From: Patescibacteria group bacterium
GTDB lineage: Bacteria; Patescibacteriota; Microgenomatia; UBA10105; UBA927
Reading direction: 5' to 3'
NCBI GenBank assembly: GCA_035510735.1
Contig: DATKGN010000004.1
Location: forward strand, 177,039-241,038
DNA length: 64,000 nt
The notes beneath the pieces were generated by a model. It saw only the letters and a list, made by a program, of their open reading frames with translations. It did not search any database and was not told where the DNA came from. Positions 10,437-58,460 of the stretch are shown piece after piece (the stretch's first letter is position 1; every line of letters begins with the position of its first letter). The position numbers and the translations under genes are program-made.

Positions 10437-10445
10437 ATTATCCGT

Positions 10446-14383: not shown

Positions 14384-14394
14384 ACCTAATAATG

Positions 14395-14408
14395 TTAGAC
14401 AAGTCTAA
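14395..14408. promoter_or_regulatory. palindrome TTAGACAAGTCTAA upstream of mntH (candidate DtxR/MntR operator)
   Basis: Perfect 6-bp inverted arms TTAGAC/GTCTAA with 2-bp spacer, 10-25 nt upstream of the mntH start. Half-sites resemble the TTAG...CTAA core of DtxR-family boxes. Confidence 0.35.
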
Positions 14409-14438
14409 TATAGATCTATTGACGCCAACTTTGCTATA

Positions 14439-15032: not shown

Positions 15033-15038
15033 TATCAT

Positions 15039-16791: not shown

Positions 16792-17760
16792 TCAATTACT
16801 ATGTAACAATACACGATAGAGCGCATCCAGAGGACAGGTGGCCAAACATATTCTTGTATCGGCCCCTCCATAGTAAACGCCGAGATTATTGTTGACGATA
16901 AGTGCTCCGGAGGGAAAAACGATATTGGGAATTTTTCCCTGCACCTCATAGTCCGTTTCTGGGTAGAGAAGCGGCTCCTGAGTTCTCCCTATCACCTTGG
17001 TCGGCTCGTTATTATCAAGTAGCGCCGCCTCAATGGTGAAAAATTTGTGTGACGTCAAATAGCTTTTGATGTAACAGTAAATAAAAAGCCATCCGTATTT
17101 TGTTTGGATCGGCGGCGCTCCGACTTCGACATGGTCATGCGTTGTTCTTAAAAGAGGAATGGTGTGTGTGCTAACTGACCTACGCCATCGTTTCCAATAG
17201 ATGGCGTCCCACATGTCACTTAGTTTTTCAAAATATGCGACACACATACTGGACGGCGGTTTGTCGGGATTAATAGTCAACAGTGCACAATACTTACCGT
17301 TTATCCGCTCGGGGAAAAGCGCCATTGCTTTCGCATTAAAGGGAGTAATTCGGTATTTATGATCAATGGAGATAAAATTTTTGGTTGTTGCAAGAGCTAC
17401 GGTAATACCGGTGGGTGTTGGTGGCCAGTCAGCAAGGGCAGTGTAAAAAATGTAATAGGTATCGCCGATTTTCGTGACCCGAGGATCCTCGCATCCGAAT
17501 TTTTCCCAATCATGTTCCGGTACAATGAGTTGTTTTCTTTTCGTAAATGTAACACGATCGCGGCTTATCGCGTGACCGATGGTCGAAAGTTCAAGTGTTT
17601 TTCCGCCAATTTGCTGCGGGTAGGACTGTGCGCGATATACCATGTGGCACGTATTTCCGTCTATAATCGGACATCCGTTGAATGTCGCTTCCTGTTCCCA
17701 TTCATGAGTATTTACAGGAGAAAGAATCGGGTTTTCGGGGAACCGCTTGAGGGTTACCAT
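16792..17760 (-). CDS. glycoside hydrolase family 130 protein (beta-mannoside phosphorylase/hydrolase-like)
   Basis: FPENPIL..., GCEDPRVTKIGDTYYIFYTA and YYGGAD motifs of the GH130 beta-propeller. Confidence 0.7.
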   Translation of the reverse strand: MVTLKRFPENPILSPVNTHEWEQEATFNGCPIIDGNTCHMVYRAQSYPQQIGGKTLELSTIGHAISRDRVTFTKRKQLIVPEHDWEKFGCEDPRVTKIGDTYYIFYTALADWPPTPTGITVALATTKNFISIDHKYRITPFNAKAMALFPERINGKYCALLTINPDKPPSSMCVAYFEKLSDMWDAIYWKRWRRSVSTHTIPLLRTTHDHVEVGAPPIQTKYGWLFIYCYIKSYLTSHKFFTIEAALLDNNEPTKVIGRTQEPLLYPETDYEVQGKIPNIVFPSGALIVNNNLGVYYGGADTRICLATCPLDALYRVLLHSN

Positions 17761-17773
17761 AGAAGATTATCGA

Positions 17774-24266: not shown

Positions 24267-24746
24267 ATGAAACAACGCGGGTTCGTGTTTATGGAACTTA
24301 TTATCGTTTTTGCGGTGGTCGCCATACTTGCGAGTATTTCCGTCATCAATATATTCGGGTCAAAACGAAAGGCATCACTCACGGGGACTATAGATCCGCT
24401 TCTTGCTGATATCAAGAGCCAACAGACCAAAGCGATGGAAGGGTCCATCGCGAACGGAAGCGCTCAGGCTGCATTCGGAGTTCATTTTGCATCAAATCAA
24501 TACGTACTGTTTAACGGCGCTACGTATAACGGATCTGACAGTGCAAACGCCGTAGTTCCTCTTGATTCTCGTGTTACGTTCAGTACGATATCCTTGCCAA
24601 GTAATACTATTGTTTTCGCTTCGAAAAGTGGGGAGGTTGTAGGGTATGCGACGAATTCAAGTACCCTAACGGTAAAACAAATTGACAGCGGAGAAATTCA
24701 AACAATTAAGCTTAATCATTATGGTGTTATCACATCGGCTCAATAA
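24267..24746 (+). CDS. prepilin-type N-terminal cleavage/methylation domain protein (minor pilin)
   Basis: Class III signal KQRG|FVFMELIIV with Glu at +5. Confidence 0.7.
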   Translation: MKQRGFVFMELIIVFAVVAILASISVINIFGSKRKASLTGTIDPLLADIKSQQTKAMEGSIANGSAQAAFGVHFASNQYVLFNGATYNGSDSANAVVPLDSRVTFSTISLPSNTIVFASKSGEVVGYATNSSTLTVKQIDSGEIQTIKLNHYGVITSAQ

Positions 24747-43735: not shown

Positions 43736-44833
43736 TTATGTAACGATTTTTTTCAACTGTTTAGAATGAATTGCTTCTTTAATTTCCAGTGCAACGCGCC
43801 TGCCGGCTGACATGCTGGCTCCCCAAAGATACCCTGAATACGGACCTGATGCAATACCCGGAGATCCTGGCATACGGGGCGATACATCGATAACAACAAT
43901 ATCTTTTTTGGGCGGGCCGGAGGTGATGATCGATTGGAGTGCAAACGGACCGATGACGCCGGGTGGATAGAGAATCCTTGTGGCTTTTACAAACGCTTCG
44001 CCTAAAGCGAATGCTTTTTCAAGCATTGATTCCAGCACCGTCACTGCAATATGACCTGATTCTTCAAACGTGAGTGGTGAAGACGCAAGTACAGTATCCT
44101 GATACATAGCTGGCACCCGCAAAAATCCATCAAGATTCGTCTGTCTTCTCGTGTCCGTTCCCATAAGTTCAAGGCGGTTATTAATCTGAGAATAAAAGAA
44201 ATTAAAATTGACTGGGGTTCCAAGGATAAATTCTTCAATAACCTGGGAGTCAAGTGCTGCTTTTGAGATTTTTTTGATCCGTATCAATTCTTTACTTTTT
44301 TTCGTATAGTCCTTAAAACTCGAAACGAGAAAGAACGCTCGTTCATATGTGCGCTCCCGTTCCGCAACTTTCACAATACATAGTCTGTCAATTTCATCCG
44401 GTGAATTGAAATGCCTCGGGTACCGGATCTTGGCTGCATGTAGCACATCATATTGGTTCGGTTTAGTTTTTCGTTCCTCTATTTTTAAGAGAAATTTATT
44501 TCCGAATATCGGTATATGTATATCGTTTTCGATCGCATGATAATCAAAATTGAGATACGCTTCCAGAGATCGGTGGGGGATGAGAATCGCGTTACGTTGT
44601 TGTAATTGTTTTTGAATATTCTTTGTTAACATATCATGAAAATCGTTTACCACGATGCACGTATCGATACATCCGAGACTATTGTGACTACGGTAATAAT
44701 CCGTGTATGTTTTCTCCCGGCCCTTTTGGGCGATCACAAGGGTTGCAAATCCCTCATCTTTTGCACCGCGGCAGACGTCAAGCGCACTGTGGCTTCCGAG
44801 TACCGCGATGGTAACCTTGTTCGTTTTTTCCAT
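43736..44833 (-). CDS. archaeal-type 5-formaminoimidazole-4-carboxamide ribonucleotide synthetase-like (PurP paralog, ATP-grasp)
   Basis: N-terminus VTIAVLGSHSALDV, IPHRSLEAY, PIFGN, and C-terminal GPFALQS ... RVALEIKEA blocks parallel PurP. Confidence 0.65.
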   Translation of the reverse strand: MEKTNKVTIAVLGSHSALDVCRGAKDEGFATLVIAQKGREKTYTDYYRSHNSLGCIDTCIVVNDFHDMLTKNIQKQLQQRNAILIPHRSLEAYLNFDYHAIENDIHIPIFGNKFLLKIEERKTKPNQYDVLHAAKIRYPRHFNSPDEIDRLCIVKVAERERTYERAFFLVSSFKDYTKKSKELIRIKKISKAALDSQVIEEFILGTPVNFNFFYSQINNRLELMGTDTRRQTNLDGFLRVPAMYQDTVLASSPLTFEESGHIAVTVLESMLEKAFALGEAFVKATRILYPPGVIGPFALQSIITSGPPKKDIVVIDVSPRMPGSPGIASGPYSGYLWGASMSAGRRVALEIKEAIHSKQLKKIVT

Positions 44834-44838
44834 TGTTT

Positions 44839-45846
44839 TTAATCGATTATCATGTCTAGTTTGTTTTTTGTGATCGCGAATTTAATTTCCCTGGCAATTC
44901 TTCTCCCGGTACTCATGGGCTCATTATATGTTAACCAGGAGTATGGGGAGCCCTCAATAAACAGGTTGGTGCCGGCAACAATTCTGCATGATATTTCCAT
45001 GGCGTAAAACCGCTGATCAGGAGTGATAACCGTTTCCAAACAAAATGGGCCGATGAGACCCCGGCGGTCAATAAGTTTTTTTGATGTGGCGACTATACGT
45101 TCACCCATCGCGTATGCTTCTGGTAAAAGAGACTCGCGAAGAACGAGCGAACTGTTGCCGACAACCACGTAACTGGGATCGATGTGCATGGAATGTTGAT
45201 ATTGTGAAGGAATTCTTCCCAGCCCGTCGACATTGGTCTCATACCTCCGGTCGATACTCATAAGCTCAACCACATTGGTTAATGGTGAATAAAAATAGTG
45301 CAGATAACATGTTACACCCACGATGTATTGTTGAATAACATAACGGGAGGATTTTATTGAGCGGATTTTTTCCGTAAATTCCTTTTTATTTGCAGCGAGG
45401 AAATATCCCGATCCTCCTGCTGCGCCGAACGTTTTGACAATAACAGGGAACTTTATAGTTTTTTCCGTAAATTCCTGTGGCATCAATATGCAGGCGTCTA
45501 CAATCCACTGTCGTTGCAGCCTGCGGTCTTCTTCCCAATCGAGAACCTTTTTATTTCCGAAATAGGGAATTGTTATTCTTTTATTTCCCTCTTTCCCAAG
45601 ATACGCGACGAAGGATCCGTGGGGGATGAGGATGCAAGTTTCTTTTTTCAATTGTTTTTCAACTTTTGGAAAATCGGAGTAGCGCGTTATCCCGATAACC
45701 TTGTCGATAAACGGAAACCTTCGGTAAAAACTTGCTTTATCGTGAAGTGCGATAAGCATCGTGCGGAATCCCTCATCTTTGGCGCCTTTCATAATCTGAA
45801 GAGCACTGTGGCTTCCGAGCGTGGCGATGGTGGTATTTATTTTCAT
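44839..45846 (-). CDS. purP: archaeal-type FAICAR synthetase (formate- and ATP-dependent AICAR formyltransferase)
   Basis: Blocks [66 protein letters not shown] and RIAREIK match characterised archaeal PurP. The ORF extends to 46095, which would overlap purQ; start at MKINTT preferred. Confidence 0.75.
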
Positions 45847-45847
45847 A

Positions 45848-46651
45848 TTAGTCTTTGAAATATGATACAGCATTTTTAAATAGTTGAAGACCGGGTCCCG
45901 CTGTTGGTACCGGTAAACCTCTCCGAGTATACACCTCTTTGAGATAGGTCCAGTTGGGAAGTTGCGTAAAGAATAGTGCGCGTTCAGGGTGGGGCATAAG
46001 GCCGAGTATTTTTCCGGTCCGATCGGTGATTCCCGCAATATCATCCATGGTGCCGGTCGGGTTAGCGGGGAGATCCTGATATATGCATGTATCACCCCTC
46101 ACATATCGAAGCGCGATCATTCCGTTTTTCCTCATTTGCTCCAACGTCGTCTGTTTGGTGTACAAGCGTCCCTCTCCGTGCCCGATAGGCAAAGAAAACG
46201 TAGTTATCCCCCGAAGCCAGGGTGATGAGCTAAAATTTTTAAGATCTGTCCAGCGATCTATTAACCGTGAGGACGAATTTTGAAGAAGGGCGATGTCCTT
46301 CGTTCCGATTTTTTCACTGAGTCCTGACAAGAGACCCGTATTGACCAAAATCTGGAATCCGTTACAAATTGCAATGACGAGTTTGTCACCTGCGGTAAAC
46401 TGCAAGAGCGCTTCCCATAAATGATTTTTTAACTTATTTGCGTACGCATTACCGGCGCCCGTATCGTCGCCGTATGAGAAGCCTCCTGGAATTACGAGTA
46501 TCTGATAGCGCATTAGTGTACTGGGCCGTTCAATGCAATCGTTGATATGGACAATGTCCGCATAGCTGCCCGCCATGCGGAACCCGAACTGCGTTTCCTC
46601 TTCACAGTTCAATCCGTATCCTGAAAATATAAGCGCTTTTGGTTTTTTCAT
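45848..46651 (-). CDS. purQ: phosphoribosylformylglycinamidine synthase glutaminase subunit
   Basis: Class I GATase with catalytic ICNGFQ and His/Glu. ALIFSGYG N-terminus. Confidence 0.85.
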   Translation of the reverse strand: MKKPKALIFSGYGLNCEEETQFGFRMAGSYADIVHINDCIERPSTLMRYQILVIPGGFSYGDDTGAGNAYANKLKNHLWEALLQFTAGDKLVIAICNGFQILVNTGLLSGLSEKIGTKDIALLQNSSSRLIDRWTDLKNFSSSPWLRGITTFSLPIGHGEGRLYTKQTTLEQMRKNGMIALRYVRGDTCIYQDLPANPTGTMDDIAGITDRTGKILGLMPHPERALFFTQLPNWTYLKEVYTRRGLPVPTAGPGLQLFKNAVSYFKD

Positions 46652-46685: not shown

Positions 46686-49589
46686 CTAATAATCCCGAAA
46701 CGTGCGCTGATATGCCTCTTGCATCGTTCTGAGTGAGCATCGAATAGTCACCTTATTAGCGTTACGTATAACAAAGTATTGTCCGTCAGTCACGCTACCA
46801 ATGAGGCTTAGCACATTCCCGTGCATAATCGACTCAAACTCCTTTTTGTTTTGTGGCGCGACAGTTACAACAATCCTTCCCTGGTTTTCATTCCATAGTA
46901 TGTTTTGCGGAACTTTTGCCGTTCCGGGAACTGCGGATAGGTCGATATCCAATCCCAACATTCCGCCCAATGCGGTTTTGGCAAGTGCGATACCTAATCC
47001 TCCTCGGTACACGCTTATTGCCGAAGCGATTGCATTGTTGCTTGTCATGTTATAAAAAGCACGGTAGAGCGCTGCATTTTTTTTGCCATTCACGGGCGCA
47101 TATGCATCCTCGTGTGTTTCTCCTAAAATATAGATAAGGTCTCCCGGTAATTTAACATCGAGCGAAATACATTTGGTGACATCGGGAATTACGCCGATCG
47201 CCGAGATAAGAAGGGTTGGTGGGATGGAGATCATAACGGGTTTTCCTTCGTCATCAAAGCCTTTAAAATCATTAAACATACTGTCTTTGCCTGATATAAA
47301 CGGCGTGCCGTACACTACGGCATAATCGTAGCAGGCCTGGGCCGCACGTTTGAGCTGCCCCAACCGGACAGGGTCATTTGCGCTACACCAGCAGAAATTA
47401 TCGAGTAGCGCAATATGGTCGACGTCTCCCCCTACCACAACTGCATTTCGTATTGCTGTATCAATTGAACAGGCTGCCATGTAATAGGCGTCATAATCGC
47501 TGTAGCGTGGATATAAACCCTGTGACAGCACAACTCCTTTTTGCGAAGAGAGAACCGGGCGGGAAACGGTTGCGTCGGCATTGATGCGCCCGCGGCCCTG
47601 CAACGGTTTTAATACGGAAAATCCCTGAACCTGATGATCATACTGCTGTGATATAAATGAAAAGCCTGCAATGTTCGGATCTGACAGTTTTGAAAGAAGC
47701 GCTTCTGTTTGGGAATCAAAAAGTTTTGCGTCAACGCCCTTAAGTGTTTTGGGCGGAGCAACTGTTGTAAGCCTGCGTGGTGGGAGACCGTCATGGAGAA
47801 ATTCCATGTCGAGATCCATAACAACCTCTTTATAATAGGTAACCACACACTTGCCTGATTTGGTAAACTCACCGATAACTGTGGCTTCGACGCCCCTTCG
47901 TTTCATGAGACGCGAAAACGCCGGCCACTTATTTTTTGGAACGGCGAGCGTCATGCGTTCCTGCGACTCGGAAATCCACAATTGCCATGGTGCAAGACCA
48001 GGATATTTTACCGGAATTTTATCGAGAGTGACAATGCAGCCGCCCGATTCTTTTGCCATTTCAGCAACGGAACAGGATAAGCCGCCCGCGCCGTTGTCGG
48101 TGATACTATGAAACAATCCAATGTCGCGGGCTTCTTTGACGATCGCGTCGCTTAACTTTTTTTGTGTGATGGGGTCTCCGATCTGAACTGCAGTAGCGGG
48201 GCTGCCGGTGCTCAGGGCCTCAGATGAAAATGTTGCCCCGTGGATGCCGTCAAGCCCAACACGGCCGCCGACCATCACAATGAGGTCGTCGGGTTGAGCA
48301 TGTTTTTCATACATTTTCTTACCTTTTATTTTTCGTGGAAGCAGACCTACGGTTCCTGCAAAAACAAGCGGTTTGCCGCGGTATCTGTCGTCAAAAAATA
48401 TAAATCCCTGCGGGGTCGGAATTCCGGAACAGTTGCCTCCTGCGTTGACCCCTGCTACGACGCCGTCAAAGATGCGCCGCGCTGATAACATCGGTTGTGT
48501 CCGTTCCGTATCGCGATAGAGGATGGAGGTATTTTTTGGCGGCGCCAGGCAAAATCCGTATGTATTAATAATCGGTTTTGCCCCGAGTCCGAATCCGATT
48601 GCGTCGCGATTCACGCCGACGATGCCGGTAATTGCACCGCCAAATGGGTCGAGAGCTGAGGGACTGTTGTGCGTTTCCACTTTATGGGAAATCATAAAGG
48701 TGTCGTCAAACGTGATTGCTCCGCTGTTGTCGGTAAATACAGAAACGCAGATATCCTTTTTCCTTTTTTGTTTTCGAATAATGTCAGTTGCTCTCTTAAT
48801 ATATGTGCGAAACAACCCCTTGGGCACATCATCAATATGGTCGGCAAATATCGTGTGTTTACAGTGTTCGCTCCATGTCTGTGCTATGGACTCAAGCTCT
48901 ATATCCGTTGGGTGCCGTCCGATTTTTCTAAAATATTTTTGTATGGCCTTCATGTAAGTGAGATCAAGAGCGAGAGGGCCACGATGAGTCCCGTCATCAT
49001 TTATAATTCCCTTCTTACCGATGTTCACGAGCTCTTCGTCGGAAACGTCTAGTGACACATCATTTACCCGTTGGGTTTTTGTAAGATGTACTTTCGGGAT
49101 TTGGTACCCGGTACGGTGTCCTTTATGAAATTCTCTGGAGCTTCGCACATATGCGCTTTGAATAAGCGGATTATAGAGACTTGCGGCTACCATTTTTATG
49201 CGTTGATCGGATATGGCACCATCTACAAAAAGTATTTGTGATGTATATACACTTGGTGCATCGAAAAAATCTTTATGCAATGTATCTGCAATCATTTCTT
49301 TCGTGGTATTTCCTATATTATCCGTTACTCCCGGTAAATATCCAATTTCAATCGCCCACGTAAATTTTTTTAGCGCCAGTGGTTTATCTACTGATGCTTT
49401 TTGAGTTAACGGGTGAGTAAGAAGTGGGATAATTCGGGTGACATCTTTTGATGATAAATCGGAGTCGACCGTATAGACATCAACGACATATGTTTTTGTC
49501 ACATTAAATCCGTCCTCGCGCAATCGCTTACATAATGCAATTGCACGAGGATCCGGAACTGTTGATGCTACCTCAATTCTTATTGCCAT
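46686..49589 (-). CDS. purL: PurS-PurL fusion: phosphoribosylformylglycinamidine synthase II with N-terminal PurS-like domain
   Basis: About 80-aa PurS-like N-domain, then the PurL AIRS/AIRS_C duplicated domains. 967 aa. Confidence 0.8.
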   Translation of the reverse strand: MAIRIEVASTVPDPRAIALCKRLREDGFNVTKTYVVDVYTVDSDLSSKDVTRIIPLLTHPLTQKASVDKPLALKKFTWAIEIGYLPGVTDNIGNTTKEMIADTLHKDFFDAPSVYTSQILFVDGAISDQRIKMVAASLYNPLIQSAYVRSSREFHKGHRTGYQIPKVHLTKTQRVNDVSLDVSDEELVNIGKKGIINDDGTHRGPLALDLTYMKAIQKYFRKIGRHPTDIELESIAQTWSEHCKHTIFADHIDDVPKGLFRTYIKRATDIIRKQKRKKDICVSVFTDNSGAITFDDTFMISHKVETHNSPSALDPFGGAITGIVGVNRDAIGFGLGAKPIINTYGFCLAPPKNTSILYRDTERTQPMLSARRIFDGVVAGVNAGGNCSGIPTPQGFIFFDDRYRGKPLVFAGTVGLLPRKIKGKKMYEKHAQPDDLIVMVGGRVGLDGIHGATFSSEALSTGSPATAVQIGDPITQKKLSDAIVKEARDIGLFHSITDNGAGGLSCSVAEMAKESGGCIVTLDKIPVKYPGLAPWQLWISESQERMTLAVPKNKWPAFSRLMKRRGVEATVIGEFTKSGKCVVTYYKEVVMDLDMEFLHDGLPPRRLTTVAPPKTLKGVDAKLFDSQTEALLSKLSDPNIAGFSFISQQYDHQVQGFSVLKPLQGRGRINADATVSRPVLSSQKGVVLSQGLYPRYSDYDAYYMAACSIDTAIRNAVVVGGDVDHIALLDNFCWCSANDPVRLGQLKRAAQACYDYAVVYGTPFISGKDSMFNDFKGFDDEGKPVMISIPPTLLISAIGVIPDVTKCISLDVKLPGDLIYILGETHEDAYAPVNGKKNAALYRAFYNMTSNNAIASAISVYRGGLGIALAKTALGGMLGLDIDLSAVPGTAKVPQNILWNENQGRIVVTVAPQNKKEFESIMHGNVLSLIGSVTDGQYFVIRNANKVTIRCSLRTMQEAYQRTFRDY

Positions 49590-49591
49590 AG

Positions 49592-51766
49592 TTATAATCC
49601 GATATCGGTACGGTATTGCATACCGTTAAAACTAATTTGTTTTCCGATAAGCGCATATACCTGTGCACGGGCTTTTTCTATTGAACTCTCCCACGCAGTG
49701 ATTCCGAGAACTCTTCCGCCGGTTGTAATTGTCGTCGATTCACTCCGCGAGGTGCCGGCATGAAACACAGTCACTGTATTGTTATGCGGTTTCGCTAGCC
49801 CCACTATTTGTATGTTTTTTAAATAGTGCCCCGGATAGCCCGGTGCCGCTAAAACAACACATACGCAGGTTTGGTTGCTGAAAGATACGAGCCGCGGGGA
49901 AAGAGAGCCGTTGAGACAGGCTTCAACGATAGATAATAGATCGCTCTTAAGAAGCGGTAATTGGACCTCTGTTTCGGGGTCTCCAAATCTGCAGTTAAAT
50001 TCCAAAATATAGGGTTTTCCCTCCGCGATCATCAATCCTGCATAGAGAACACCTTGATATGGTCGACCCTCCTTTTTCATGCATTGAACTGCATATTGTA
50101 ATAACTGATATATCTTCTTTAGTTGCTGTGGAGTCGCGTTATCGGATGGCGCCATTGATCCCATGCTTCCGGTATTGGGACCAACATTACCATCTCCGAG
50201 TCGCTTGTAGTCTGAGGTTGCAATAATCGGAGCGACCCGTGTGCCGTCACTAAAGACCATAACTGACACTTCTTTTCCGACAAGTTTTTCCTGAATCACT
50301 ATTCGATCTCCCGCTCGTCCCAACGTTTTATTAATCATAAGCGATCGTATTGCATCACTTGCAGTCTTCATGCTGTCACAGACGAAAACTCCTTTACCCT
50401 GACAGAGCCCGTCCGCTTTAATGACGACATTACCGTTATATTGTCCGCTGTATGCAATTGCAGATTTCGGATCATTGAAAGTCTTTGAGGCTGGACGGGG
50501 GAGGTTGTGGCGTTTTAAAAATTCAGAGGCCCAAACTTTACTGGTTTCTAATTGTGCTGCTTCGCGGGTTGGTCCGAAGATTTGTAGGCCCTCTTGGGTA
50601 AATTTGTTGACGATTCCCAAAGACAGGGGAGCTTCGGGTCCGACGACCGTAACATCAATGCCTGCCGTCTTTGCAAATTGCAGGAGCCCATCAACATTAT
50701 CGGCGGCAATCGGTAAATTTTGGCCTAACGTCGAAGTGCCACCATTGCCCGGGGCAAAGTATAGTTGCCCAATATTTTTTGATTTCGCGAGCTTCCATCC
50801 GATAGCGTGTTCACGGCCGCCTGACCCTACAATCAATATTGTCTTTTTGTCTACGATTTTCATTATTTTTCTTTCAAATTCCTTTTTCAAAGGTAAACCC
50901 ACCCGCGCGCCGGACTTACGTACGCAAAATCCTGCGAGCGTATTGCCTGCATCTGCGCACATTCTTAAATTTTTTTGACGGAGGACCCCCCATAAATAAC
51001 CGGCAATGAACGCATCACCTGCGCCGGTTGTATCTACCGCAGAAACCGAAACCGTAGGAATATGTGTGATGCAATAGATTATGGAAACAAAACATCCGTT
51101 GGATCCGTCCGTGATAACGACAGTGGAAACGCCAAGATCATGCAGTAGTTTTGTTCCTGTTAGATTTTCTTTTCCCGTTAGCGTTTGCAATTCTTCTTTG
51201 GTTAGAAAAACGATTGCGCATCGGCGAAGAATCGGTGTGAGGCGGGTCATCCCCAGTCTGCAGTAGATAATCCCTGGGGCAAAAGAGATAATTATAGTTT
51301 TATGTAATTTAGAAATGAAAGATTCCTGCACACTCAGCTGTTTGGTATTAACGAATGAACTTACGTGCATAATTTTAGTGTGGATTGTTGATGGCGCCGG
51401 CATATCGCGTGAAGTGAGATCGCTATTTATTCCCGGAAAAATATTCAGAAGCCGATGCCCCTTTTTATCTACAAGTCCCAAAACAACACCGCTGTTACCA
51501 GATTTTTTCCGTATTAACGTTGTGTCTACATGGTCTGCCTTAAAAGCCGAGATATGTAATTTCCCCTCCGCGTCATCGCCGATTGTACCGATGAACGCGG
51601 CTTTTTGACCGAGCCGACCCAGTGCGGCTATTGTATTTGCGGCTGACCCGCCGGGTGCGCGTGTTTCGTATTCCACGAGCGCCTCGCCTTCACTTGTAAA
51701 TTGGGGGACTGTGCCCAAGCGATCAACATTCAGCGCACCGAAACCGATAATGTCGTAGGTTTTCAT
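49592..51766 (-). CDS. purD: fusion of PfkB-family (ribokinase-like) sugar/nucleoside kinase with phosphoribosylamine-glycine ligase (PurD)
   Basis: Residues 1-300 carry the GG motif (PGGSAANTIAALG) and the ribokinase anion-hole motif VDTTGAGDAFIAGY. Residues 302-724 are PurD (ILIVGSGGREHA...). No stop codon between the two halves. Confidence 0.8.
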   Translation of the reverse strand: MKTYDIIGFGALNVDRLGTVPQFTSEGEALVEYETRAPGGSAANTIAALGRLGQKAAFIGTIGDDAEGKLHISAFKADHVDTTLIRKKSGNSGVVLGLVDKKGHRLLNIFPGINSDLTSRDMPAPSTIHTKIMHVSSFVNTKQLSVQESFISKLHKTIIISFAPGIIYCRLGMTRLTPILRRCAIVFLTKEELQTLTGKENLTGTKLLHDLGVSTVVITDGSNGCFVSIIYCITHIPTVSVSAVDTTGAGDAFIAGYLWGVLRQKNLRMCADAGNTLAGFCVRKSGARVGLPLKKEFERKIMKIVDKKTILIVGSGGREHAIGWKLAKSKNIGQLYFAPGNGGTSTLGQNLPIAADNVDGLLQFAKTAGIDVTVVGPEAPLSLGIVNKFTQEGLQIFGPTREAAQLETSKVWASEFLKRHNLPRPASKTFNDPKSAIAYSGQYNGNVVIKADGLCQGKGVFVCDSMKTASDAIRSLMINKTLGRAGDRIVIQEKLVGKEVSVMVFSDGTRVAPIIATSDYKRLGDGNVGPNTGSMGSMAPSDNATPQQLKKIYQLLQYAVQCMKKEGRPYQGVLYAGLMIAEGKPYILEFNCRFGDPETEVQLPLLKSDLLSIVEACLNGSLSPRLVSFSNQTCVCVVLAAPGYPGHYLKNIQIVGLAKPHNNTVTVFHAGTSRSESTTITTGGRVLGITAWESSIEKARAQVYALIGKQISFNGMQYRTDIGL

Positions 51767-52677
51767 AGCATTTCCCTCCGGGGCGATCGGGTCTCAATCG
51801 AATGAATTCCCGTTCCCTCATTTCCAGGCCAGATTGCATGATCCCCGACGATTTCTTCCGTTAAATCCAGTCCGTTCTCCAATGCTATACTATTTGTTCC
51901 AATAATTTTCCCTTCTACAACAGAGAGCCTGCCTTCTGCAAACGCTCCTATCGTACGAATGACGAGTTCCGGTTCAAATGCTGCTTCCGCCTGACGGAGT
52001 TCTGTGAATAAGGGGTGAGTCGGTTTATCTTTCAGTGACGTTTGTTCTTGGATAAGCTTTTCCAATTCATCGTGATCAGTTGGCAGCGTGTCCCACAGAC
52101 GGCTTAGATTTATACCATTAATAATTCCCTTGGCAGGAAGACGGAAATAGGCAATTGGGGTACCCGCGTCAAGCGTCGGGATTGCAAGATGCATCATGCC
52201 ACCGATTTCTTTTCTTTTTTCCCGGACCCAAGTCCCTATAACGTTCCAGTACACACCCTCTCTTCCGCCCATTGATAATGGTAAATCGGGGTGGAGATTC
52301 AAGGATGGCAGGGTATTACACCATTCTGATCCTTTTATTACCATGTCTCCAGCCATGATATTGAGATCGGATTTTTCCCGTATTTGTTTCAAGATTGCCG
52401 TATCGTATTCATTTTTATCAGCATCCGTTGGGTTTTTCTTTATTCTCCCGTGCTGTTTAGCAGAATACATAATAAGAGGCACGTCAGAATAGTTATTCAT
52501 TAATCGCGTAAGCAACAGATCGGTCATTCTTCTCGCATCGTCTCCCACCTCTCGGGTAGAAATAACAGCTGAAACGTGCACACCGGGAAGTTCACCTAGG
52601 GTAGCGGCGTCTATGATACCTGTTACTAATTTGTATGCTTCAAAATCGATGAGTGTTGAACTTATGCTTATGTTCAT
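51763..52677 (-). CDS. formyltransferase-domain protein (PurN-like GAR transformylase candidate) with C-terminal extension
   Basis: NIMAGDMVIKGSEW...SLNLHPDLP (N-x-H) and HLAIPTLDAGTPIA (catalytic Asp region) align to the PurN/Fmt formyltransferase core. About 100 extra C-terminal residues. Confidence 0.5.
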   Translation of the reverse strand: MNISISSTLIDFEAYKLVTGIIDAATLGELPGVHVSAVISTREVGDDARRMTDLLLTRLMNNYSDVPLIMYSAKQHGRIKKNPTDADKNEYDTAILKQIREKSDLNIMAGDMVIKGSEWCNTLPSLNLHPDLPLSMGGREGVYWNVIGTWVREKRKEIGGMMHLAIPTLDAGTPIAYFRLPAKGIINGINLSRLWDTLPTDHDELEKLIQEQTSLKDKPTHPLFTELRQAEAAFEPELVIRTIGAFAEGRLSVVEGKIIGTNSIALENGLDLTEEIVGDHAIWPGNEGTGIHSIETRSPRREML

Positions 52678-52683
52678 ATGGTT

Positions 52684-53733
52684 TTATCCGAGTACTGCAG
52701 CATCAGCGCGAATTATTTTTCTCATCTTCGTATGACGTGCTACTAAAGAATTAAACAGAGACTTGTTTTGTGGATTCACGCGAACAAAGTGAGCGTCAGA
52801 ATGTTTGCTTTGTTTTTGAATAAACGATGAGACTGCATCATTGCCTCCCTTGATCCATGCGTTCAGGAGGGGAATGAGAAATTCCATATTCGGTGTTGAA
52901 ACTGCCACTTTTGCTGCCTCTAACGCATAGTGGTTGCCGTTGATTGCTATTGATAATCCACCGGCGCGGTTGATTGCCTGAAAAAGTTCGACATCAGTTA
53001 TGCTGTCTCCAATGTAGATCACATCTTTGAGTGTTACTTTCAACTGTCGAGCAAAACGTTCTGCGGCTTCAACTTTGCGTTTTCCGCCGATGACATGAAT
53101 CGCTGAGAGTATTTCCAAGCCTGCATCAGGAAGATCTTTCCAAAAAAATCGGTCTAGTCGTTTTCGTAGGAAAATACACGACTCATTATTCATAAATAGA
53201 TCTATTGTGGAAGAATTTGTTCCCTCTGAGTTCAACATCCGCAAACAGGAGGGCGTCATTGATTTAATATCTTTTTCAGTTTCGGTAATTACGTTCATTA
53301 TTTTTTTTGTCGAAAATTGACGGTGGAGTTTATCAAGCTGCAAGTCAGTTGATGCGATATCCATGTGGGGAATATTCAGGTGCGCTCCAACCGTTTCCCA
53401 TAAATATGTATACGCAGTAGATATAATCCGGATGTTCCACTCATCATGGCGAAGTTTCCTAACGCATTGCACTACTCCGGGCGTCAACCTTGCATGTTGC
53501 GCGATCTTTTTCATTTTAGCGTCGGTTACACCATGCGAAATAAAGAGAGGGATGATAAGCGCAAGTGTGTCACCTGCCTGGTACTCATCAGGACCATGAA
53601 CGGAAAGATAATCATCATATGCACTCAAAAGTAAAAACAAATTTTTGTCAATGGTCGAGGTGACATCAAGGGCAAAATCATTTGTAACGATAGGACCCTC
53701 GCCGTCAGTAAACAAAACCTTGCGGGTGTTCAT
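52684..53733 (-). CDS. HAD-superfamily-like hypothetical protein with atypical motif I, embedded in pur operon
   Basis: LFTDGEGPIV (D-x-E in place of D-x-D), IISTAY (motif II), K in GGKRK, YIGDSITD (motif IV). Confidence 0.4.
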   Translation of the reverse strand: MNTRKVLFTDGEGPIVTNDFALDVTSTIDKNLFLLLSAYDDYLSVHGPDEYQAGDTLALIIPLFISHGVTDAKMKKIAQHARLTPGVVQCVRKLRHDEWNIRIISTAYTYLWETVGAHLNIPHMDIASTDLQLDKLHRQFSTKKIMNVITETEKDIKSMTPSCLRMLNSEGTNSSTIDLFMNNESCIFLRKRLDRFFWKDLPDAGLEILSAIHVIGGKRKVEAAERFARQLKVTLKDVIYIGDSITDVELFQAINRAGGLSIAINGNHYALEAAKVAVSTPNMEFLIPLLNAWIKGGNDAVSSFIQKQSKHSDAHFVRVNPQNKSLFNSLVARHTKMRKIIRADAAVLG

Positions 53734-55273
53734 AGATGTTTTTGGGCAGTATGTCTTTTATTATTTTGATCCTTTTCGATTTTTGAACGACCGTGTTTCC
53801 ATTTATATCCACCGGCGGCTGATGTCCCGCCATGCAACCCATGCAGAATCCGCGTGTCTTCGGATCTCCCGTAATGGCTTCCCGCAAACCTTCAGCACTT
53901 AAGTATGCCAGTGATTTCGCGCCGAGCTCGATCCTGATTCTCTCAACATCTCCGTTTAAACGGGCAGCGATCAGTTCTTTTGAAGACCGTGTATTTACTC
54001 CCAAGTGGCACGCTTTATCGATTGGAGGACTGACGATGCGCAGATGAACATCAATGACGCCATAATAGTGTTTGAGTAAATAAATAAGACCCCGCGTTAT
54101 ATTTCCACGGACTATCGAGTCATCGACCAGAACGACGCGGCGCCCGTGTAATGCTTGGGCGTCAAAACAAAAATGCTCCAGCACCTTTTGATAGATACTA
54201 TCAATATCGGCAGTCATGAATGTTCGTTGCTCTGTGAGACTGACCGATTTATCCGTAATCGCCTGAAAGTAGGGAAGATCAAGCGCCCGCGCGTAGGTCA
54301 TGCCGCCTTCGATACCTGTTCCCGGGACTCCTATAACCATATTCACTTCACGTAATGAAATAGGCGCTTCACGGGCGAGGATTTTGCCACTGCGTCTCCT
54401 CACATCGTCAATAGTAGGCGACCGTTTCACTGCCCGAATGCTGCTTCGCGGCATGTGCGCTTTGCCCGCACCGTGTTGCAAATAGATATTTTCAAAAATA
54501 CAGAGAGCCCGTTGCCGTTCATGCTGTTTTGCTAAAATGATAAGACCTTTGTCGGAAATTTTAGCAATCGTGCCGGGCATTAATTCAAAATAATCGGTAA
54601 CTCCCATGGCATCCAACGCACTTGTTTCTGAAGCCGCTACCCAAACAAACTGACGTGTTATACTATCCCACAGGTGTCCGTATACAAACGGACGTAACCC
54701 CCAGGAGTCCCTCGCCACATACAGTGCGTTATCCGTGCTTACCACCAAGCTCCATGCGCCGCGTTTGGTCGATAGGACGCGGACGATTCGCTCATCCCAA
54801 TTTTGGCCGTCTGCATCACGGAGTTCTTGAGTGAATAGTAATGTGTCGCTTTGTCCGGATTGTTTCACGTTGGCGCTCTGAGAAAACTGGCCGTTATGAA
54901 CAACCATAAATGTTTCACCTGCCTGTCCAAGTTTTGTGACAATAGGTTGGACGTTATTTGTTGTAAATTCGCCGCTTGTCCCATAGCGTACCTGATAAAC
55001 CCAACTTTTTGCGCGAATTGTCTTAAGATCTTTCGCGATTGACGGGCGAAATACTTCCCGGACCATTCCTTTGTCTTTATGCTCAAAGAGCTGGCCCTTT
55101 TCACTCTTGGCGCAAAAGCCGGCGCCGTCATATCCACGAGTTTGCAATATTGACAGTCCTGCTAACCCAGTTTTGAAGAATTCAAAATCTTTTGGTGCAA
55201 ACGCGGCGACGATGCCGCAGTGGTCCTGAAGGGGTAAACGTTCAGCAACAAAAAAAGGATACGACGATTTCAT
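53705..55273 (-). CDS. purF: amidophosphoribosyltransferase
   Basis: N-terminal CGIVA nucleophile after a short propeptide, Ntn-GATase domain, PRT motif VVLVDDSIVRGNIT. ORF opens at 55324; Met at 55273 has an AGGGA RBS. Confidence 0.85.
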   Translation of the reverse strand: MKSSYPFFVAERLPLQDHCGIVAAFAPKDFEFFKTGLAGLSILQTRGYDGAGFCAKSEKGQLFEHKDKGMVREVFRPSIAKDLKTIRAKSWVYQVRYGTSGEFTTNNVQPIVTKLGQAGETFMVVHNGQFSQSANVKQSGQSDTLLFTQELRDADGQNWDERIVRVLSTKRGAWSLVVSTDNALYVARDSWGLRPFVYGHLWDSITRQFVWVAASETSALDAMGVTDYFELMPGTIAKISDKGLIILAKQHERQRALCIFENIYLQHGAGKAHMPRSSIRAVKRSPTIDDVRRRSGKILAREAPISLREVNMVIGVPGTGIEGGMTYARALDLPYFQAITDKSVSLTEQRTFMTADIDSIYQKVLEHFCFDAQALHGRRVVLVDDSIVRGNITRGLIYLLKHYYGVIDVHLRIVSPPIDKACHLGVNTRSSKELIAARLNGDVERIRIELGAKSLAYLSAEGLREAITGDPKTRGFCMGCMAGHQPPVDINGNTVVQKSKRIKIIKDILPKNIYEHPQGFVY

Positions 55274-55362
55274 CGCAATCGTATCCCTTATGTACAGAGT
55301 AAAAAAGAACGGGTGGGTTGTCAAGAGCTCAATATTGTTTAAGCTTGTGCTTTTTTGGCCAA

Positions 55363-55391
55363 TTGACAGACTTCTTTCTGACAGTTTATAG
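55363..55391 (+). promoter_or_regulatory. sigma70-like promoter for purA
   Basis: TTGACA-17 nt-TTATAG, about 35 nt upstream of the purA start. Overlaps a TTGGCCAA palindrome. Confidence 0.35.
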
Positions 55392-55426
55392 TAAATACTA
55401 TTGTTCTGCCCTTTAGGAACTTTATT

Positions 55427-56971
55427 ATGCCGATTCCTAGAGCGGGAAGCCTCAAATTCACCTTACAACAAGAACGCTTTTTGCACCCAGAAAAAGAAAT
55501 AACCAAAGACTATCAAGCGGTCTACAAAAAAAACCGTATCGTTGTCGGTTGGCCCAACGGGAAGAAAAAAGTATTTCATGAAATTTCCCGACTCCATACA
55601 GTATGCGTTGTCGGTGTTGCATTAGGCGATGAGGGAAAGGGAAGAATTATTGATAATCTTATAGGGTCGTATTTAAAAACCAAGGGCGTCTCTGGCGTAA
55701 CGGTGATCCGGTTTCAGGGCGGCAATAATTCAGGTCATACCGTTGAAGTAAACGGCGTTCATCTGGCTCTTCATCAAATACCCTGCGGTGTTATGTATAA
55801 TAATGTGACGTGCATCATGGATCGCGGGATGACCATAAATCCCGAAGATCTCGTTGATGAGATCCATATCGTAGAGAAAATAACCGGTAACACAAAAGGA
55901 AAATTGTTTTTATCCGCAGATGCAGTGCTTAATACTGATTTAGATCGGGCGGAAGAATTACTCAATCGTAAGCGTCAGGGGAAATCGGGCGGCGGGACCG
56001 GTCGTGGCATCGGACCGTCATATGCTCATCATTATGATCGGTTAGGATTTCATATTTTTGACTTACTTGGGTCAGATTGGCGGGAAAAATTAGGTGCCCA
56101 GTATGATCGTTATCAAAAAGAATTCAAACTCTACGGATTGACACTTGAAACAGTGGAGGTTCCGGATTTTAAGAAAACAAAAAAAATGCGTCGCGAATAT
56201 AAACGGATGGTAGGGTCAAGGGAAGAGTTTTTACACCGCATCGGTAGGGCACGTAAAGAATTGATCGCGAGAAAATTAATTACCAATACGTTTCCTCTGC
56301 ACGAGCGGGTCTATCAAAAAAAATCAGAAGCGGTTCTGTTTGAGGGCGCCCAATCATTAGGTTTGCATGCCTGGCTTGGGACGGTGCCGGATATCACGGC
56401 ATCCGATACATCAACGTTCGGCATACAAAGCGGGACTGCCTTTTGGAAAATGCAGAATATTGAAGACCGTATAGGAATTTTTAAAGTTCCCTATACATCA
56501 AGTGTTGGTGCGCGTCATATGCCGACACAAGCTGATGAAGCGTGGGCAACGAAAGTCCGGGATGAGGCGCATGAATATGGGACAACAACAGGAAGACCGC
56601 GCGATATTTTATACCCGGATCTCCCGCTTCTTTCTTATAATATCCGCATGTCGGGCGTCGAAATGATCATAGGAACCCACTTGGATACTTCGTGGGAGGA
56701 TGTTCCCATTAAGGTCTGTACACACTATACAGATAAAAAGGGAAATACCCTCCCGTATCAACCCGGATTGCATCATCTCGTTGGCGTGGTTCCTCATTAC
56801 ATTACCTTGCCAGGATGGGATGGGGTAAAGGTTAGGAGTGCGAAATCATTCAAACAGCTTCCTGAAAACGCAAAAAAGTTTTTGGCGTTTTTACAATTGC
56901 GGCTGGGGACTCCGATTATTGCGGTAACAACCGGACCGGCGCGGGAAAATTATATTACCACTCCATCTTAA
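55427..56971 (+). CDS. purA: adenylosuccinate synthetase with N-terminal extension
   Basis: GDEGKGRIID P-loop, GGNNSGHTVE, GTTTGRPR. About 55 extra N-terminal residues and several insertions (514 aa vs about 430). Confidence 0.85.
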   Translation: MPIPRAGSLKFTLQQERFLHPEKEITKDYQAVYKKNRIVVGWPNGKKKVFHEISRLHTVCVVGVALGDEGKGRIIDNLIGSYLKTKGVSGVTVIRFQGGNNSGHTVEVNGVHLALHQIPCGVMYNNVTCIMDRGMTINPEDLVDEIHIVEKITGNTKGKLFLSADAVLNTDLDRAEELLNRKRQGKSGGGTGRGIGPSYAHHYDRLGFHIFDLLGSDWREKLGAQYDRYQKEFKLYGLTLETVEVPDFKKTKKMRREYKRMVGSREEFLHRIGRARKELIARKLITNTFPLHERVYQKKSEAVLFEGAQSLGLHAWLGTVPDITASDTSTFGIQSGTAFWKMQNIEDRIGIFKVPYTSSVGARHMPTQADEAWATKVRDEAHEYGTTTGRPRDILYPDLPLLSYNIRMSGVEMIIGTHLDTSWEDVPIKVCTHYTDKKGNTLPYQPGLHHLVGVVPHYITLPGWDGVKVRSAKSFKQLPENAKKFLAFLQLRLGTPIIAVTTGPARENYITTPS

Positions 56972-57016: not shown

Positions 57017-57625
57017 ATGAATTGGGAACAACGAAGCGAGCTCGGCGGGATCAAACGACCCGAGCCCCTAGTGGCTAATCCTAAGTATATTGCTATTGAT
57101 TTGGAGGGCACGATCATTGAGCCGTTATTTGCTCATGGACCTATGACAATTGTTGGGCGGCCGGGTTCCACAAGATTGTTAACTGAGTTAGTCAACCGGG
57201 GATTTACGAATATTGTTATGTCAGGGTCGTCAATGCCAACTGAAACATTTTTCAGTTCACTTCCTCGTTGGAAACCACTCATTAATAGGATTATTTGGGA
57301 TCCTGAATGTAAGGAAATACAAAATACGTTTATCAAAAGTGAATGGATGAAATCGTTATTTGATTCGGATGAGTCTATATATTATTCACTGGAAGATATT
57401 TTTCATGGTACTAATGGAGGTAAGTATCCACCCCTATTCGGAATCGGCGGAGGCATAATAGATGATATTCTTGCACATGTGTCACAAGAGAAAGGTAGGT
57501 TAACTGAATTGAAAGAATATGGATTTCCGATATTTGATCCCCGTCAAAAACAGGATGACAGTACACAGGAGACTTGGGTTGACAGACTGCTACAGCAGAT
57601 AGATATTAATAATTCAGTTTTTTGA
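57017..57625 (+). CDS. hypothetical protein with HAD/NIF-like DLEGT motif
   Basis: YIAIDLEGTII resembles HAD/FCP1 motif I with Glu at the second acidic position. Otherwise unknown. Confidence 0.35.
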   Translation: MNWEQRSELGGIKRPEPLVANPKYIAIDLEGTIIEPLFAHGPMTIVGRPGSTRLLTELVNRGFTNIVMSGSSMPTETFFSSLPRWKPLINRIIWDPECKEIQNTFIKSEWMKSLFDSDESIYYSLEDIFHGTNGGKYPPLFGIGGGIIDDILAHVSQEKGRLTELKEYGFPIFDPRQKQDDSTQETWVDRLLQQIDINNSVF

Positions 57626-58460
57626 AAAAACTTTTGAAGATTCGATAAAGTTTTTCTTCTGTTTTTTTGCTCTCCAATACGGCAACAACTTCTTCGTGAT
57701 TGGTCGCATTCGTACCGTCTTTGGCAATTGCGTTCGTTATCATGGAAACGCCAAGAGTTTCCAAGCCACGATTGGTTGCTGTGATAATTTCCGGGATTGT
57801 AGACATGCCAACAGCATTGGCTCCCATTGCGCGAAGCATTAGGCATTCTGCCTGCGTTTCATATGTTTTACCGGTAAGCGCAACATATACCCCCTCGTGA
57901 ATTGAGGGGTCAATGGTGCAAAATAGTTTCCGTAATCTTGGAGAATATTCCGTATTTTGCGGTTGGAAAAAATCATTGTTGCCGAAATCATGATGAGGTC
58001 CCAAAAGGGGATTGGGTTGAAATATCCCAATATGGGAAGTTATAACCATGAGATCTCCGACGCGGAATTTTGGGTTGAGGCCCCCGGCGGCATTCGTCGC
58101 AACATACAGTCTGCATCCTAAGCTCGCCACTACATTGACCGGGAACGTGACGATATCCATTGGCCTCTCTTCATGGGCAACTTCGTAGTAATGTTTTCTT
58201 CCCTGAAGTCCTAAAACAGGAACTCCCTCAAGATATCCTAGAATCATATTGCTCTCATGTCCGGGAACGGTTGAGATGGGAAAGTGGGGGATTTCTGAGT
58301 AGCTCAGTATTGCAACAGGTTTTATAAGAGATGCAAGCTTGTTCAGACCTGAACCTAAAGTTAATGTAACGGTGGGAGAAAATTTTTTCTTTTTACAGTG
58401 TTTATTGATGAAAGTAACTGCTTCATTAACTCGGGTAACATACGCGTCCTTTGTTTTCAT
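57606..58460 (-). CDS. purine nucleoside phosphorylase (PNP/MTAP family I)
   Basis: TLGSGL phosphate-binding loop, GMSTIPE and NATNHEEV motifs of trimeric PNPs. Confidence 0.8.
   Translation of the reverse strand: MKTKDAYVTRVNEAVTFINKHCKKKKFSPTVTLTLGSGLNKLASLIKPVAILSYSEIPHFPISTVPGHESNMILGYLEGVPVLGLQGRKHYYEVAHEERPMDIVTFPVNVVASLGCRLYVATNAAGGLNPKFRVGDLMVITSHIGIFQPNPLLGPHHDFGNNDFFQPQNTEYSPRLRKLFCTIDPSIHEGVYVALTGKTYETQAECLMLRAMGANAVGMSTIPEIITATNRGLETLGVSMITNAIAKDGTNATNHEEVVAVLESKKTEEKLYRIFKSFFKKLNY

Follow-up and report, generated by a model that had tools for sequence, protein, structure and literature searches.

Why should a kinase of the PfkB family be joined in frame to PurD, the glycinamide ribonucleotide (GAR) synthetase of purine biosynthesis? 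The question is raised by a 64,000-nucleotide (nt) stretch of a Patescibacteria group bacterium (assembly GCA_035510735.1, contig DATKGN010000004.1, positions 177,039 to 241,038), hereafter the window, in which one uninterrupted open reading frame (ORF) of 724 amino acids (aa) at 49592–51766 on the minus strand, with an ATG start and no internal stops, encodes both. The host is a Patescibacterium whose relatives bearing names are Gottesmanbacteria, and the GenBank entry of the protein (HUD19384.1) is annotated solely as phosphoribosylamine--glycine ligase. An initial annotation had described the ORF correctly, without its strand, and had seen in it either a salvage entry point or a means of channelling phosphoribosylamine into the pathway. 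We found that the ORF is a genuine bifunctional protein, in which an ordinary complete PurD (the C-terminal 415 residues) follows a PfkB-fold kinase (the N-terminal 300), and that the kinase closes a conserved, mostly unfused cassette which recurs at the PurD/PurN/PurL node in Patescibacteria and Bathyarchaeia as well as in other bacteria. By this unnamed cassette we mean a haloacid dehalogenase (HAD) phosphatase of the AF1437 type, a formyltransferase and a 5'-kinase. The fused architecture is built from known textbook families; the HAD-formyltransferase-kinase cassette is previously unremarked.

The fused gene and its product

The C-terminal half (residues 310–724; 49595–50839, minus strand) is the complete GAR synthetase that the initial annotation had recognized. 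It scores 469.3 bits against the TIGR00877 purD model (cutoff 288) and matches PF02844, PF01071 and PF02843, with GARS_N at residues 309–407, GARS_A at 408–599 and GARS_C at 634–723. A GSGGREH loop is found at residues 314–320 of the fused protein, this half is 81% identical to an unfused PurD (P0005), and Foldseek aligned it to PDB entry 2yw2 with a TM-score of 0.94 and a root-mean-square deviation of 1.5 Å. The N-terminal half matches the Pfam model PF00294 over residues 9–292 (50891–51742, minus strand) with 156.2 bits against a gathering threshold of 25.8 (E = 1.6e-45). As far as profile matching goes, the size of the domain E-values rules out chance.

Judged by its residues, the kinase is catalytically intact, as all catalytic motifs are present. 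The GG dipeptide (G39-G40; 51647–51652, minus strand) is invariant or nearly so in the family alignments. The anion-hole motif DTTGAGDAF (residues 245–253; 51008–51034, minus strand) was read directly from the sequence and contains the catalytic Asp251 (codon 51014–51016, minus strand), which disposes of the worry in the initial annotation that this Asp might prove to be missing. Invariant positions in an alignment of 21 family members are N13, D15, G39-G40, N44, R105, H134, S137, F138, E192 and T247-GAGD251. Family alignments place E192 in an NxxE-type motif (T189-K-E-E192 in the window; 51191–51202, minus strand), the first position of which is Asn in most of the subfamily and Thr in most fused members. 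Directly after the GG dipeptide, at the position of ribokinase Lys43 (GGKGAN), stands Ser41, which is nearly invariant throughout the kinase subfamily, and three alignments pair ribokinase Glu143 with different non-conserved residues (Phe138, Thr141 or Ser145).

It could be argued that the N-terminal domain is a pseudo-kinase, kept as a non-catalytic structural or regulatory appendage of PurD. A decayed kinase can indeed persist on PurD: one contig (L003) carries tandem PfkB::PurD genes at 10001–12202 and 13815–16010 (proteins P0028 and P0030), with four small reverse-strand genes between them, whose anion holes are degraded to DDSGTTSTF, without the catalytic Asp, and to DTAGIQDAF, with GIQD for GAGD. 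These two genes lie beside a canonical PurN and no HAD, and their proteins form long branches; they look like decaying relics, possibly of a pseudo-kinase, or like an independent event. In the clade of the window protein, on the other hand, all catalytic motifs have been kept despite about 50% sequence divergence, and we regard a pseudo-kinase there as extremely unlikely.

The domain falls far below the cutoffs of the named families. It scores 135.5–139 bits against the ribokinase model TIGR02152 (cutoff 299.65) and 111–114 against NF008353 (341), 105.6 and 107.1 against the ribose-1-phosphate kinase models NF041134 (500) and NF053626 (330), and 40–43 against the archaeal nucleoside kinase model NF041164 (450). 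Over all 21 family members, the strongest NCBIfam match was to the Thermococcales ribose-1-phosphate kinase (9e-54), with ribokinase close behind (2.8e-52). A profile search of the PDB scored YdjH, ribokinases, fructokinase and adenosine kinase alike and returned no characterized close relative. The nearest stand-alone relatives, 40–46% identical, are unnamed archaeal 'carbohydrate kinases' of Bathyarchaeia, Altiarchaeales and Thermoplasmata; with the cassette and archaeal kinases as a whole the window kinase shares 37–47% identity and the invariant residues, and it groups with them in a neighbour-joining (NJ) tree. (All trees were distance-based NJ trees with no bootstrap.) Because the score is far under the cutoff and Lys43 is replaced by Ser, sequence comparison indicates that the kinase is not a ribokinase orthologue and places it in an uncharacterized archaeal-type PfkB subfamily. 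It is probably a riboside 5'-kinase. The salvage-like entry suggested by the initial annotation is therefore possible in this broad sense, while its likening of the domain to ribokinase does not extend to orthology.

In fold, the kinase domain is closest to Escherichia coli ribokinase (Foldseek TM-score 0.88 to 1rkd/1rka, with 24% identity to 1rkd), and the same search found no PDB chain covering both halves of the fused protein. An AlphaFold2 (AF2) model built on a 102-sequence alignment has a mean predicted local distance difference test (pLDDT) value of 94.4 and a predicted TM-score (pTM) of 0.85, with pLDDT above 90 in the kinase fold. The model predicts two compact domains and a short structured connector, a helix at residues 294–305 (pLDDT 87–95; 50846–50887, minus strand) that leads into the first strand of PurD.

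The two halves meet in the peptide ...KKEFERKI|MKIVDKKTILIVGSGGREH, where the codon of Met302 at 50861–50863 falls within the junction of about 50860–50870 estimated by the initial annotation. Met302 is aligned with the start of unfused PurDs. The junction DNA reads AGA AAA ATA ATG, and a sequencing or assembly error of one base in its A5 run could have joined two genes, since removal of one A gives AAA TAA TG and restores a TAATG overlap of stop and start. However, five contigs have a gene call for an identical 724-aa protein, and the three that were retrieved (L090, L091 and L092), each from a different Sequence Read Archive run, show 0 differences from the window in the 2175-nt gene, junction included, and the same HAD-PurN'-fusion-PurL order, PurN' being the PurN-like protein described below. 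There are also seven more fused proteins, five at 50–53% identity (P0001–P0004 and P0006) and P0028 and P0030 at 37–38%; the linkers of the first five differ from that of the window, and two of them have no Met at the junction. Given a gene sequence shared without change by three independent assemblies, and different linkers in the fused orthologues, the fusion is not an artefact; the sequencing error against which the initial annotation had warned has practically no likelihood left. A promoter-like match, TTGAAA-17-AATAAT (10/12), lies at 50862–50890 on the minus strand, exactly on the kinase-PurD junction. It is probably meaningless, as promoter-like counts in the region are at chance level, and a search for an internal promoter or terminator between the two halves gave matches at chance level only.

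Rarity and origin of the fusion

The fused architecture is real yet very rare. When 1.84 billion cluster representatives were searched exhaustively with phmmer, only two spanned PfkB and PurD. A scan of genome contigs with the fusion alignment, in which the patterns used came from PurD only, returned ordinary PurDs at 41–48% identity among the matches listed. We found no paper describing a PfkB-PurD fusion or AF1437, and literature searches on ribokinase with phosphoribosylamine, on EhaR and on ribose-1-phosphate kinase of the candidate phyla radiation found nothing relevant.

The junction sequence suggests that the fusion probably arose by loss of the stop codon at an overlapping stop and start (TAATG) between adjacent pfkB and purD genes. 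In the NJ kinase tree the Patescibacterial domains form one clade, within which the unfused P0122 and P0124 are nested, and the PurD tree intermingles fused genes with unfused ones. These trees fit a single ancestral cassette followed by repeated loss, fission or replacement by PurN.

The operon and the cassette

In the window the fused gene lies in a closely packed minus-strand purine operon with the order PurF-like, HAD, PurN', PfkB::PurD, PurL, PurQ, two PurP, PurB, PurE, PurC and PurM, in which the genes around the fusion, from PurF-like through PurL, are spaced by -29, +6, -4 and +2 nt. The HAD and PurN' upstream of the fusion, members of the same unit as the kinase, had been missed by the initial annotation. 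PurN' (304 aa; 51763–52677, minus strand), whose stop overlaps the start of the fusion (ATGA), is listed by GenBank as a 'hypothetical protein'. Beyond some 14 close homologues, its nearest matches are PurN proteins about 270 aa long, with an identity of about 30%. It keeps NLHP, with the catalytic Asn-x-His, and the catalytic Asp, has S-[ST]-x and a 4-residue insertion in place of the canonical GxG[ST]N loop for the phosphate of GAR, and ends in a conserved C-terminal extension of about 90 aa. By these features we class PurN' as a divergent PurN-like formyltransferase of a wider 'PurN-long' family (about 270 aa). The idea that PurN' is a simple stand-in for PurN and that this explains everything was considered and rejected; both types are present in locus L104, and canonical PurN can itself accompany the HAD-kinase pair. 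The HAD (349 aa; 52684–53733, minus strand) aligns with the orphan structure AF1437 (PDB 1Y8A, E = 2.9e-23); its motif I is D-G-E-G-P, hence DxE and not DxD, and motifs II–IV are intact in the alignment. On the other side of the fusion, 2 nt downstream, is PurL (967 aa; 46686–49589, minus strand), the pathway step after formylglycinamide ribonucleotide (FGAR).

Comparison with close relatives shows what the cassette replaces. In the nearest relative (L001) PurF, PurD and PurL are 87, 81 and 81% identical to those of the window, and the interval between purF and purD holds canonical PurN only. The segment of the window without DNA homology to this relative by blastn (50823–53805, minus strand) takes in the 3' end of purF, the HAD, PurN' and the kinase domain, and measures 2983 bp in the window versus 921 bp in the relative. 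A second, independent sister pair has HAD-PurN'-PfkB::PurD in L002 versus PurN-PurD in L179, with PurD 73% and PurL 84% identical. In both pairs HAD-PurN'-PfkB is exchanged for PurN between purF and purD, so the cassette takes the exact place of canonical PurN in the window and in L002; the contig of P0008 has the PurN form as well.

Further afield, a metagenome scan with the HAD alignment yielded 80 loci, a sample biased by the HAD patterns used; neighbours were called with a simple ORF finder and tblastn thresholds, and the taxonomic labels of the cassette contigs were inferred. Among the 62 loci whose downstream sequence is long enough, the gene after the HAD is PfkB in 31 (median gap 6 nt) and a P-loop protein of the AAA_28 family, with a weak deoxynucleoside-kinase match, in 7. 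A PurN-type gene lies directly upstream of the HAD in 44 of the 63 loci with enough upstream sequence. The gene order of the window is repeated in L005 at about 50% identity; L094 and L095 have HAD-PurN'-PfkB-PurD with PfkB and PurD unfused and overlapping by 14 nt; and in L009 the HAD is immediately upstream of PfkB. The AF1437-type HAD is also found in L005, L095, L006 and L176. Many of the cassette contigs are bacterial, with neighbours such as ClpP, trigger factor, EF-P, AspRS and DprA. Some lie within purine operons: one group (L097–L108) has the order PurL-PurQ-(PurP-PurP)-PurN-long-HAD-AAA_28-PurM, and another (L110, L121–L123) PurN-PurD-like-HAD-PfkB-PurL-PurQ-PurM. The AAA_28 protein in the slot next to the HAD is 176–189 aa long in L096–L108 (for example L100 5287–5817 and L105 8326–8895), and its presence in the place of PfkB looks like a non-orthologous displacement of the kinase.

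Three Bathyarchaeia genomes (L176, L177 and L178) carry PurF-PurD-HAD-X-Ftr-like-PfkB opposite PurQ-PurL-PurS-PurM, with a kinase 41% identical to that of the window, and neither PurN nor PurT was detected within this purine locus. The Ftr-like gene, of the formylmethanofuran:tetrahydromethanopterin (H4MPT) formyltransferase family, lies between PurD/HAD and PfkB (L176 7093–8004), and its product is a candidate for the missing archaeal GAR formyltransferase. Gene X of this cluster is membrane-anchored, has a faint GH43 match and was seen nowhere else. The HAD slot is thus constant, while two unrelated folds occupy each of the others, PurN-like or Ftr-like in the formyltransferase slot and PfkB or AAA_28 in the kinase slot.

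Several observations concern other members of these loci. A 215-aa PHP-domain phosphoesterase is conserved directly upstream of PurN-long-HAD-PfkB, after EF-P, in 28 bacterial loci (L115–L166, for example L138 8530–9177), and may, in the lineage concerned, be a fourth cassette member. AF1437-type HADs also form a subgroup (L153–L174) that stands alone beside an iron-dependent repressor, and another (L125–L128) near a GT4 glycosyltransferase. Divergent PurD-like proteins, about 30% identical to the PurD of the window, are encoded at L110 8028–9986, L121 3148–4488 and L104 1250–2557. They have DGGGRGH or DGSGRGA in place of GSGGREH, their genes adjoin canonical PurN (to which the gene is fused in L110) and the HAD-kinase pair, and they may act on an altered substrate.

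The make-up of the cassette bears directly on the channelling of phosphoribosylamine proposed by the initial annotation, in which the kinase would make ribose-5-phosphate, or phosphorylate ribosylamine, beside PurD and so bypass or supplement PurF. Phosphoribosylamine is unstable, the fusion partner is specifically PurD, the AF2 model is compact and the closest fold is that of ribokinase, all of which would suit such a role. Yet the kinase is mostly unfused (L094/L095, L176 and dozens of cassettes) and often away from PurD, it can be replaced by the AAA_28 kinase, and its constant partners are the HAD and a formyltransferase, which channelling leaves without a role. The Lys43 of ribokinase is lost and Glu143 has no conserved counterpart, the closest relatives manage without the kinase, and the same operon encodes a PurF with a catalytic Cys. 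We conclude that channelling is highly unlikely to be the reason for the fusion.

A possible route from GAR to FGAR

The explanation that we tentatively favour, giving it a little less than an even chance, is that the cassette forms an alternative, ATP-consuming route from GAR to FGAR by dephosphorylation, formylation and rephosphorylation. The HAD would dephosphorylate GAR, the formyltransferase (PurN' in the window, the Ftr-like protein in Bathyarchaeia) would formylate the riboside, and the kinase domain would re-phosphorylate the (formyl)glycinamide riboside to FGAR, which would then be handed to the PurL encoded directly downstream. A phosphatase specific for the substrate and a kinase specific for the product would make the formyl transfer irreversible, even from a weak donor, at the cost of one ATP, as with PurT. 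The fusion would in this case tether the GAR-making enzyme to the one that completes FGAR, and no phosphoribosylamine would be channelled. Four observations point to such a route: phosphatase and kinase partner the formyltransferase whatever its fold, the Bathyarchaeial gene order follows the proposed order of reactions, the cassette and PurN can stand in for each other among close relatives, and PurN' is without the usual phosphate loop. The dephosphorylation of FGAR to its riboside is known in vivo (PMC12107509).

A number of points weigh against this proposal. In the 21 kb of L093 PurN' adjoins PurD and neither a HAD nor a kinase is present, and PurN' may work on GAR unaided; no kinase is nearby in 23 of the 62 HAD loci. 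In the group of L110 and L121–L123, HAD-PfkB goes together with a canonical PurN whose phosphate loop is present, and PurN-long is absent; both PurN types occur together in L104. The S-[ST] residues that replace the phosphate loop of PurN could still bind phosphate. The detour through dephosphorylation and rephosphorylation costs ATP for an advantage that is conjectural, and we infer the riboside route from gene context. A fusion that joins the opening enzyme of the proposed segment to its final one departs from the classic pattern of consecutive steps. Finally, the homology of EhaR, a protein of methanogens considered below, to the AF1437-type HAD is a presumption.

Genes near the operon raise the possibility of nucleoside salvage instead. 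Beyond the purine operon the window encodes PurA, a purine nucleoside phosphorylase (PNP, 57606–58460), IMP dehydrogenase (IMPDH), GuaA and a phosphoribosyltransferase (PRTase), and PfkB could be a kinase of the adenosine, inosine or guanosine type with the HAD as a 5'-nucleotidase, the fusion to PurD being an accident of adjacency. The loss of the ribokinase Lys to Ser would agree with this, adenosine kinases come nearly equal to ribokinases against the family profile (3ubo, E = 5e-38), and the AAA_28 protein that replaces the kinase in sister operons has its weak match to deoxynucleoside kinases. The HAD-kinase pair is dispensable and patchy, and fusions of non-consecutive purine enzymes are common (the PurN-PurD proteins P0017, P0021 and P0032). 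However, the NCBIfam nucleoside-kinase model gives the window protein only its 40–43 bits, and an opposing kinase and nucleotidase that are co-expressed would run a futile cycle. Salvage also leaves unexplained both the close linkage, with translational coupling, to a formyltransferase of either of two folds and the swap with PurN at one operon position, and we consider it unlikely.

The PNP and the archaeal type of the kinase could also be read as signs of a pentose-phosphate supply, in which the kinase would act on ribose-1-phosphate or ribose and the HAD would strip the 1-phosphate from ribose-1,5-bisphosphate, giving ribose-5-phosphate for phosphoribosyl pyrophosphate. A kinase followed by a phosphatase acting at another position is a logical sequential pair, and the ribose-1-phosphate kinase of Thermococcales is, marginally over ribokinase, the best family match. 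The scores against the ribose-1-phosphate kinase models are nevertheless far under their cutoffs (105 vs 500 and 107 vs 330), the formyltransferase is left without a role, and nothing accounts for the swap with PurN, the displacement by AAA_28 or the location between PurD and PurL. This function seems quite unlikely to us.

If the route from GAR to FGAR through the riboside is followed further, the cassette could be a third GAR-transformylase system beside PurN and PurT, and could be the long-missing GAR formyltransferase of Archaeoglobi, Methanobacteriales, Methanopyrus and ANME-1. We hold this wider proposal to be rather doubtful. PurN and PurT were not found in Archaeoglobi, four Methanobacteriales and Methanopyrus kandleri (Brown et al. 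2011, PMC3261824), and ANME-1 shows the same gap (Chadwick et al. 2022, PMC9012536); a divergent Ftr2 is present in ANME-1, Archaeoglobales, M. kandleri and Methanothermobacter (PMC9012536). In Methanothermobacter the Ftr-like EhaS and the ribokinase-like EhaT are co-transcribed with the eha hydrogenase and are functionally unexplained (Kaster et al., PMC3087415); with EhaR they stand at the end of the eha operon. The formyl donor of the third system would be of low potential, formyl-methanofuran or formyl-H4MPT by way of the Ftr-like protein or another donor by way of PurN-long. From the thermodynamics of C1 carriers, formyl-methanofuran and 5-formyl-H4MPT are weak formyl donors. If the proposal is true, it explains the co-transcription of EhaR, EhaS and EhaT with the anaplerotic Eha hydrogenase and gives a function to the puzzling EhaS and EhaT genes of methanogens, and the PfkB::PurD of the window is then a fused form of this system.

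The fusion ties a widespread uncharacterized PfkB subfamily and an orphan structural-genomics HAD to the GAR/FGAR node, the latter being AF1437 (PDB 1Y8A). Should the cassette prove to be an alternative means of GAR formylation, it would address the question, raised in 2011 and repeated in 2022, of how archaea formylate GAR without PurN or PurT. Through the fusion and the cassette the question of the missing archaeal GAR formyltransferase becomes experimentally testable.

Other features of the window

The PurF-like amidophosphoribosyltransferase at the head of the operon (53705–55276, minus strand) scores 205 bits against TIGR01134, below the cutoff of 350, and has no Pfam PRTase match; its N-terminus has a propeptide followed by the catalytic Cys (LQDH|CGIVA). 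Met17 of the listed ORF, in agreement with the start in L001, is the probable start, and the TTG start of the listed 53705–55324 (minus strand) is probably wrong. PurL, to which GenBank gives merely the name 'AIR synthase-related protein', has an N-terminal extension of about 200 aa before the FGAR amidotransferase linker that is PurS-like by position; PurQ is separate. Tandem PurP paralogues, resembling the formate-dependent formyltransferase of 5-aminoimidazole-4-carboxamide ribonucleotide, lie at 43736–44833 and 44839–~45900 (minus strand), and neither PurH nor PurO was found in the purine operon of the window. The second PurP is listed as a 418-aa ORF (44839–46095) that overlaps PurQ; its orthologue in L001 has 335 aa, and the true start is probably later than listed.

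PurA (55427–56971, plus strand) is transcribed divergently with respect to the purine operon, and about 57 additional N-terminal aa precede its adenylosuccinate synthetase match; the best promoter-like match of the region (11/12) is at 55363–55392. Rfam and tRNA scans of the window found nothing. Elsewhere in the window an 827-aa ORF (24682–27165, plus strand) without Pfam matches lies downstream of T2SSE/T2SSF genes resembling those of type IV pili, and two adjacent genes of the GH130 mannoside phosphorylase family are found at 16792–19624 (minus strand).

Comparison with known systems

The closest structural model for the kinase half is E. coli RbsK (1RKD), with which it shares the fold, the GG motif, the Asn/Asp that bind the cis-diol and the GAGD with its catalytic Asp. 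It differs from RbsK in having only 24% identity to it and under half of the equivalog cutoff, in the change of Lys43 to Ser, in its family-specific invariant Arg105 and His134-x-x-Ser137-Phe138, in the lack of a conserved counterpart of Glu143, and in being fused to PurD. A more distant PfkB homologue is PDB entry 1TYY (E = 1e-18), the aminoimidazole riboside kinase STM4066 of Salmonella. It returns the riboside of a purine intermediate to the pathway, but it is unfused and has no link to a HAD or a formyltransferase.

As a fusion, the window protein resembles the PurN-PurD proteins (P0017, P0021, P0032 and the one in L110), in which PurD is covalently joined to an enzyme of the same operon or pathway. 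The trifunctional GART of animals, PurD-PurM-PurN, is another multifunctional PurD fusion. Unlike in either of these, the partner of PurD in the window is a PfkB kinase, which is absent from the textbook ten-step pathway.

As a gene set, EhaS and EhaT resemble the Bathyarchaeial cluster in pairing an Ftr-like protein with PfkB, accompanied in that cluster by an AF1437-type HAD, where the Eha proteins are compared by annotation only. The window differs from EhaR/S/T in that its formyltransferase is PurN-like and not Ftr-like and its kinase is fused to PurD. Under the explanation that we favour, the cassette would be a functional analogue of PurT, in that GAR would be formylated for one ATP without 10-formyl-tetrahydrofolate. 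PurT, however, is a single ATP-grasp enzyme that works by way of formyl phosphate, whereas the cassette comprises three proposed activities, and there is no homology between them. A precedent for the logic of dephosphorylating, modifying and re-phosphorylating an intermediate, and for the logic only, is offered by the riboflavin pathway, in which a HAD dephosphorylates an intermediate, the free form is modified and a kinase re-phosphorylates it, through a pathway and enzymes that differ from those of the cassette.

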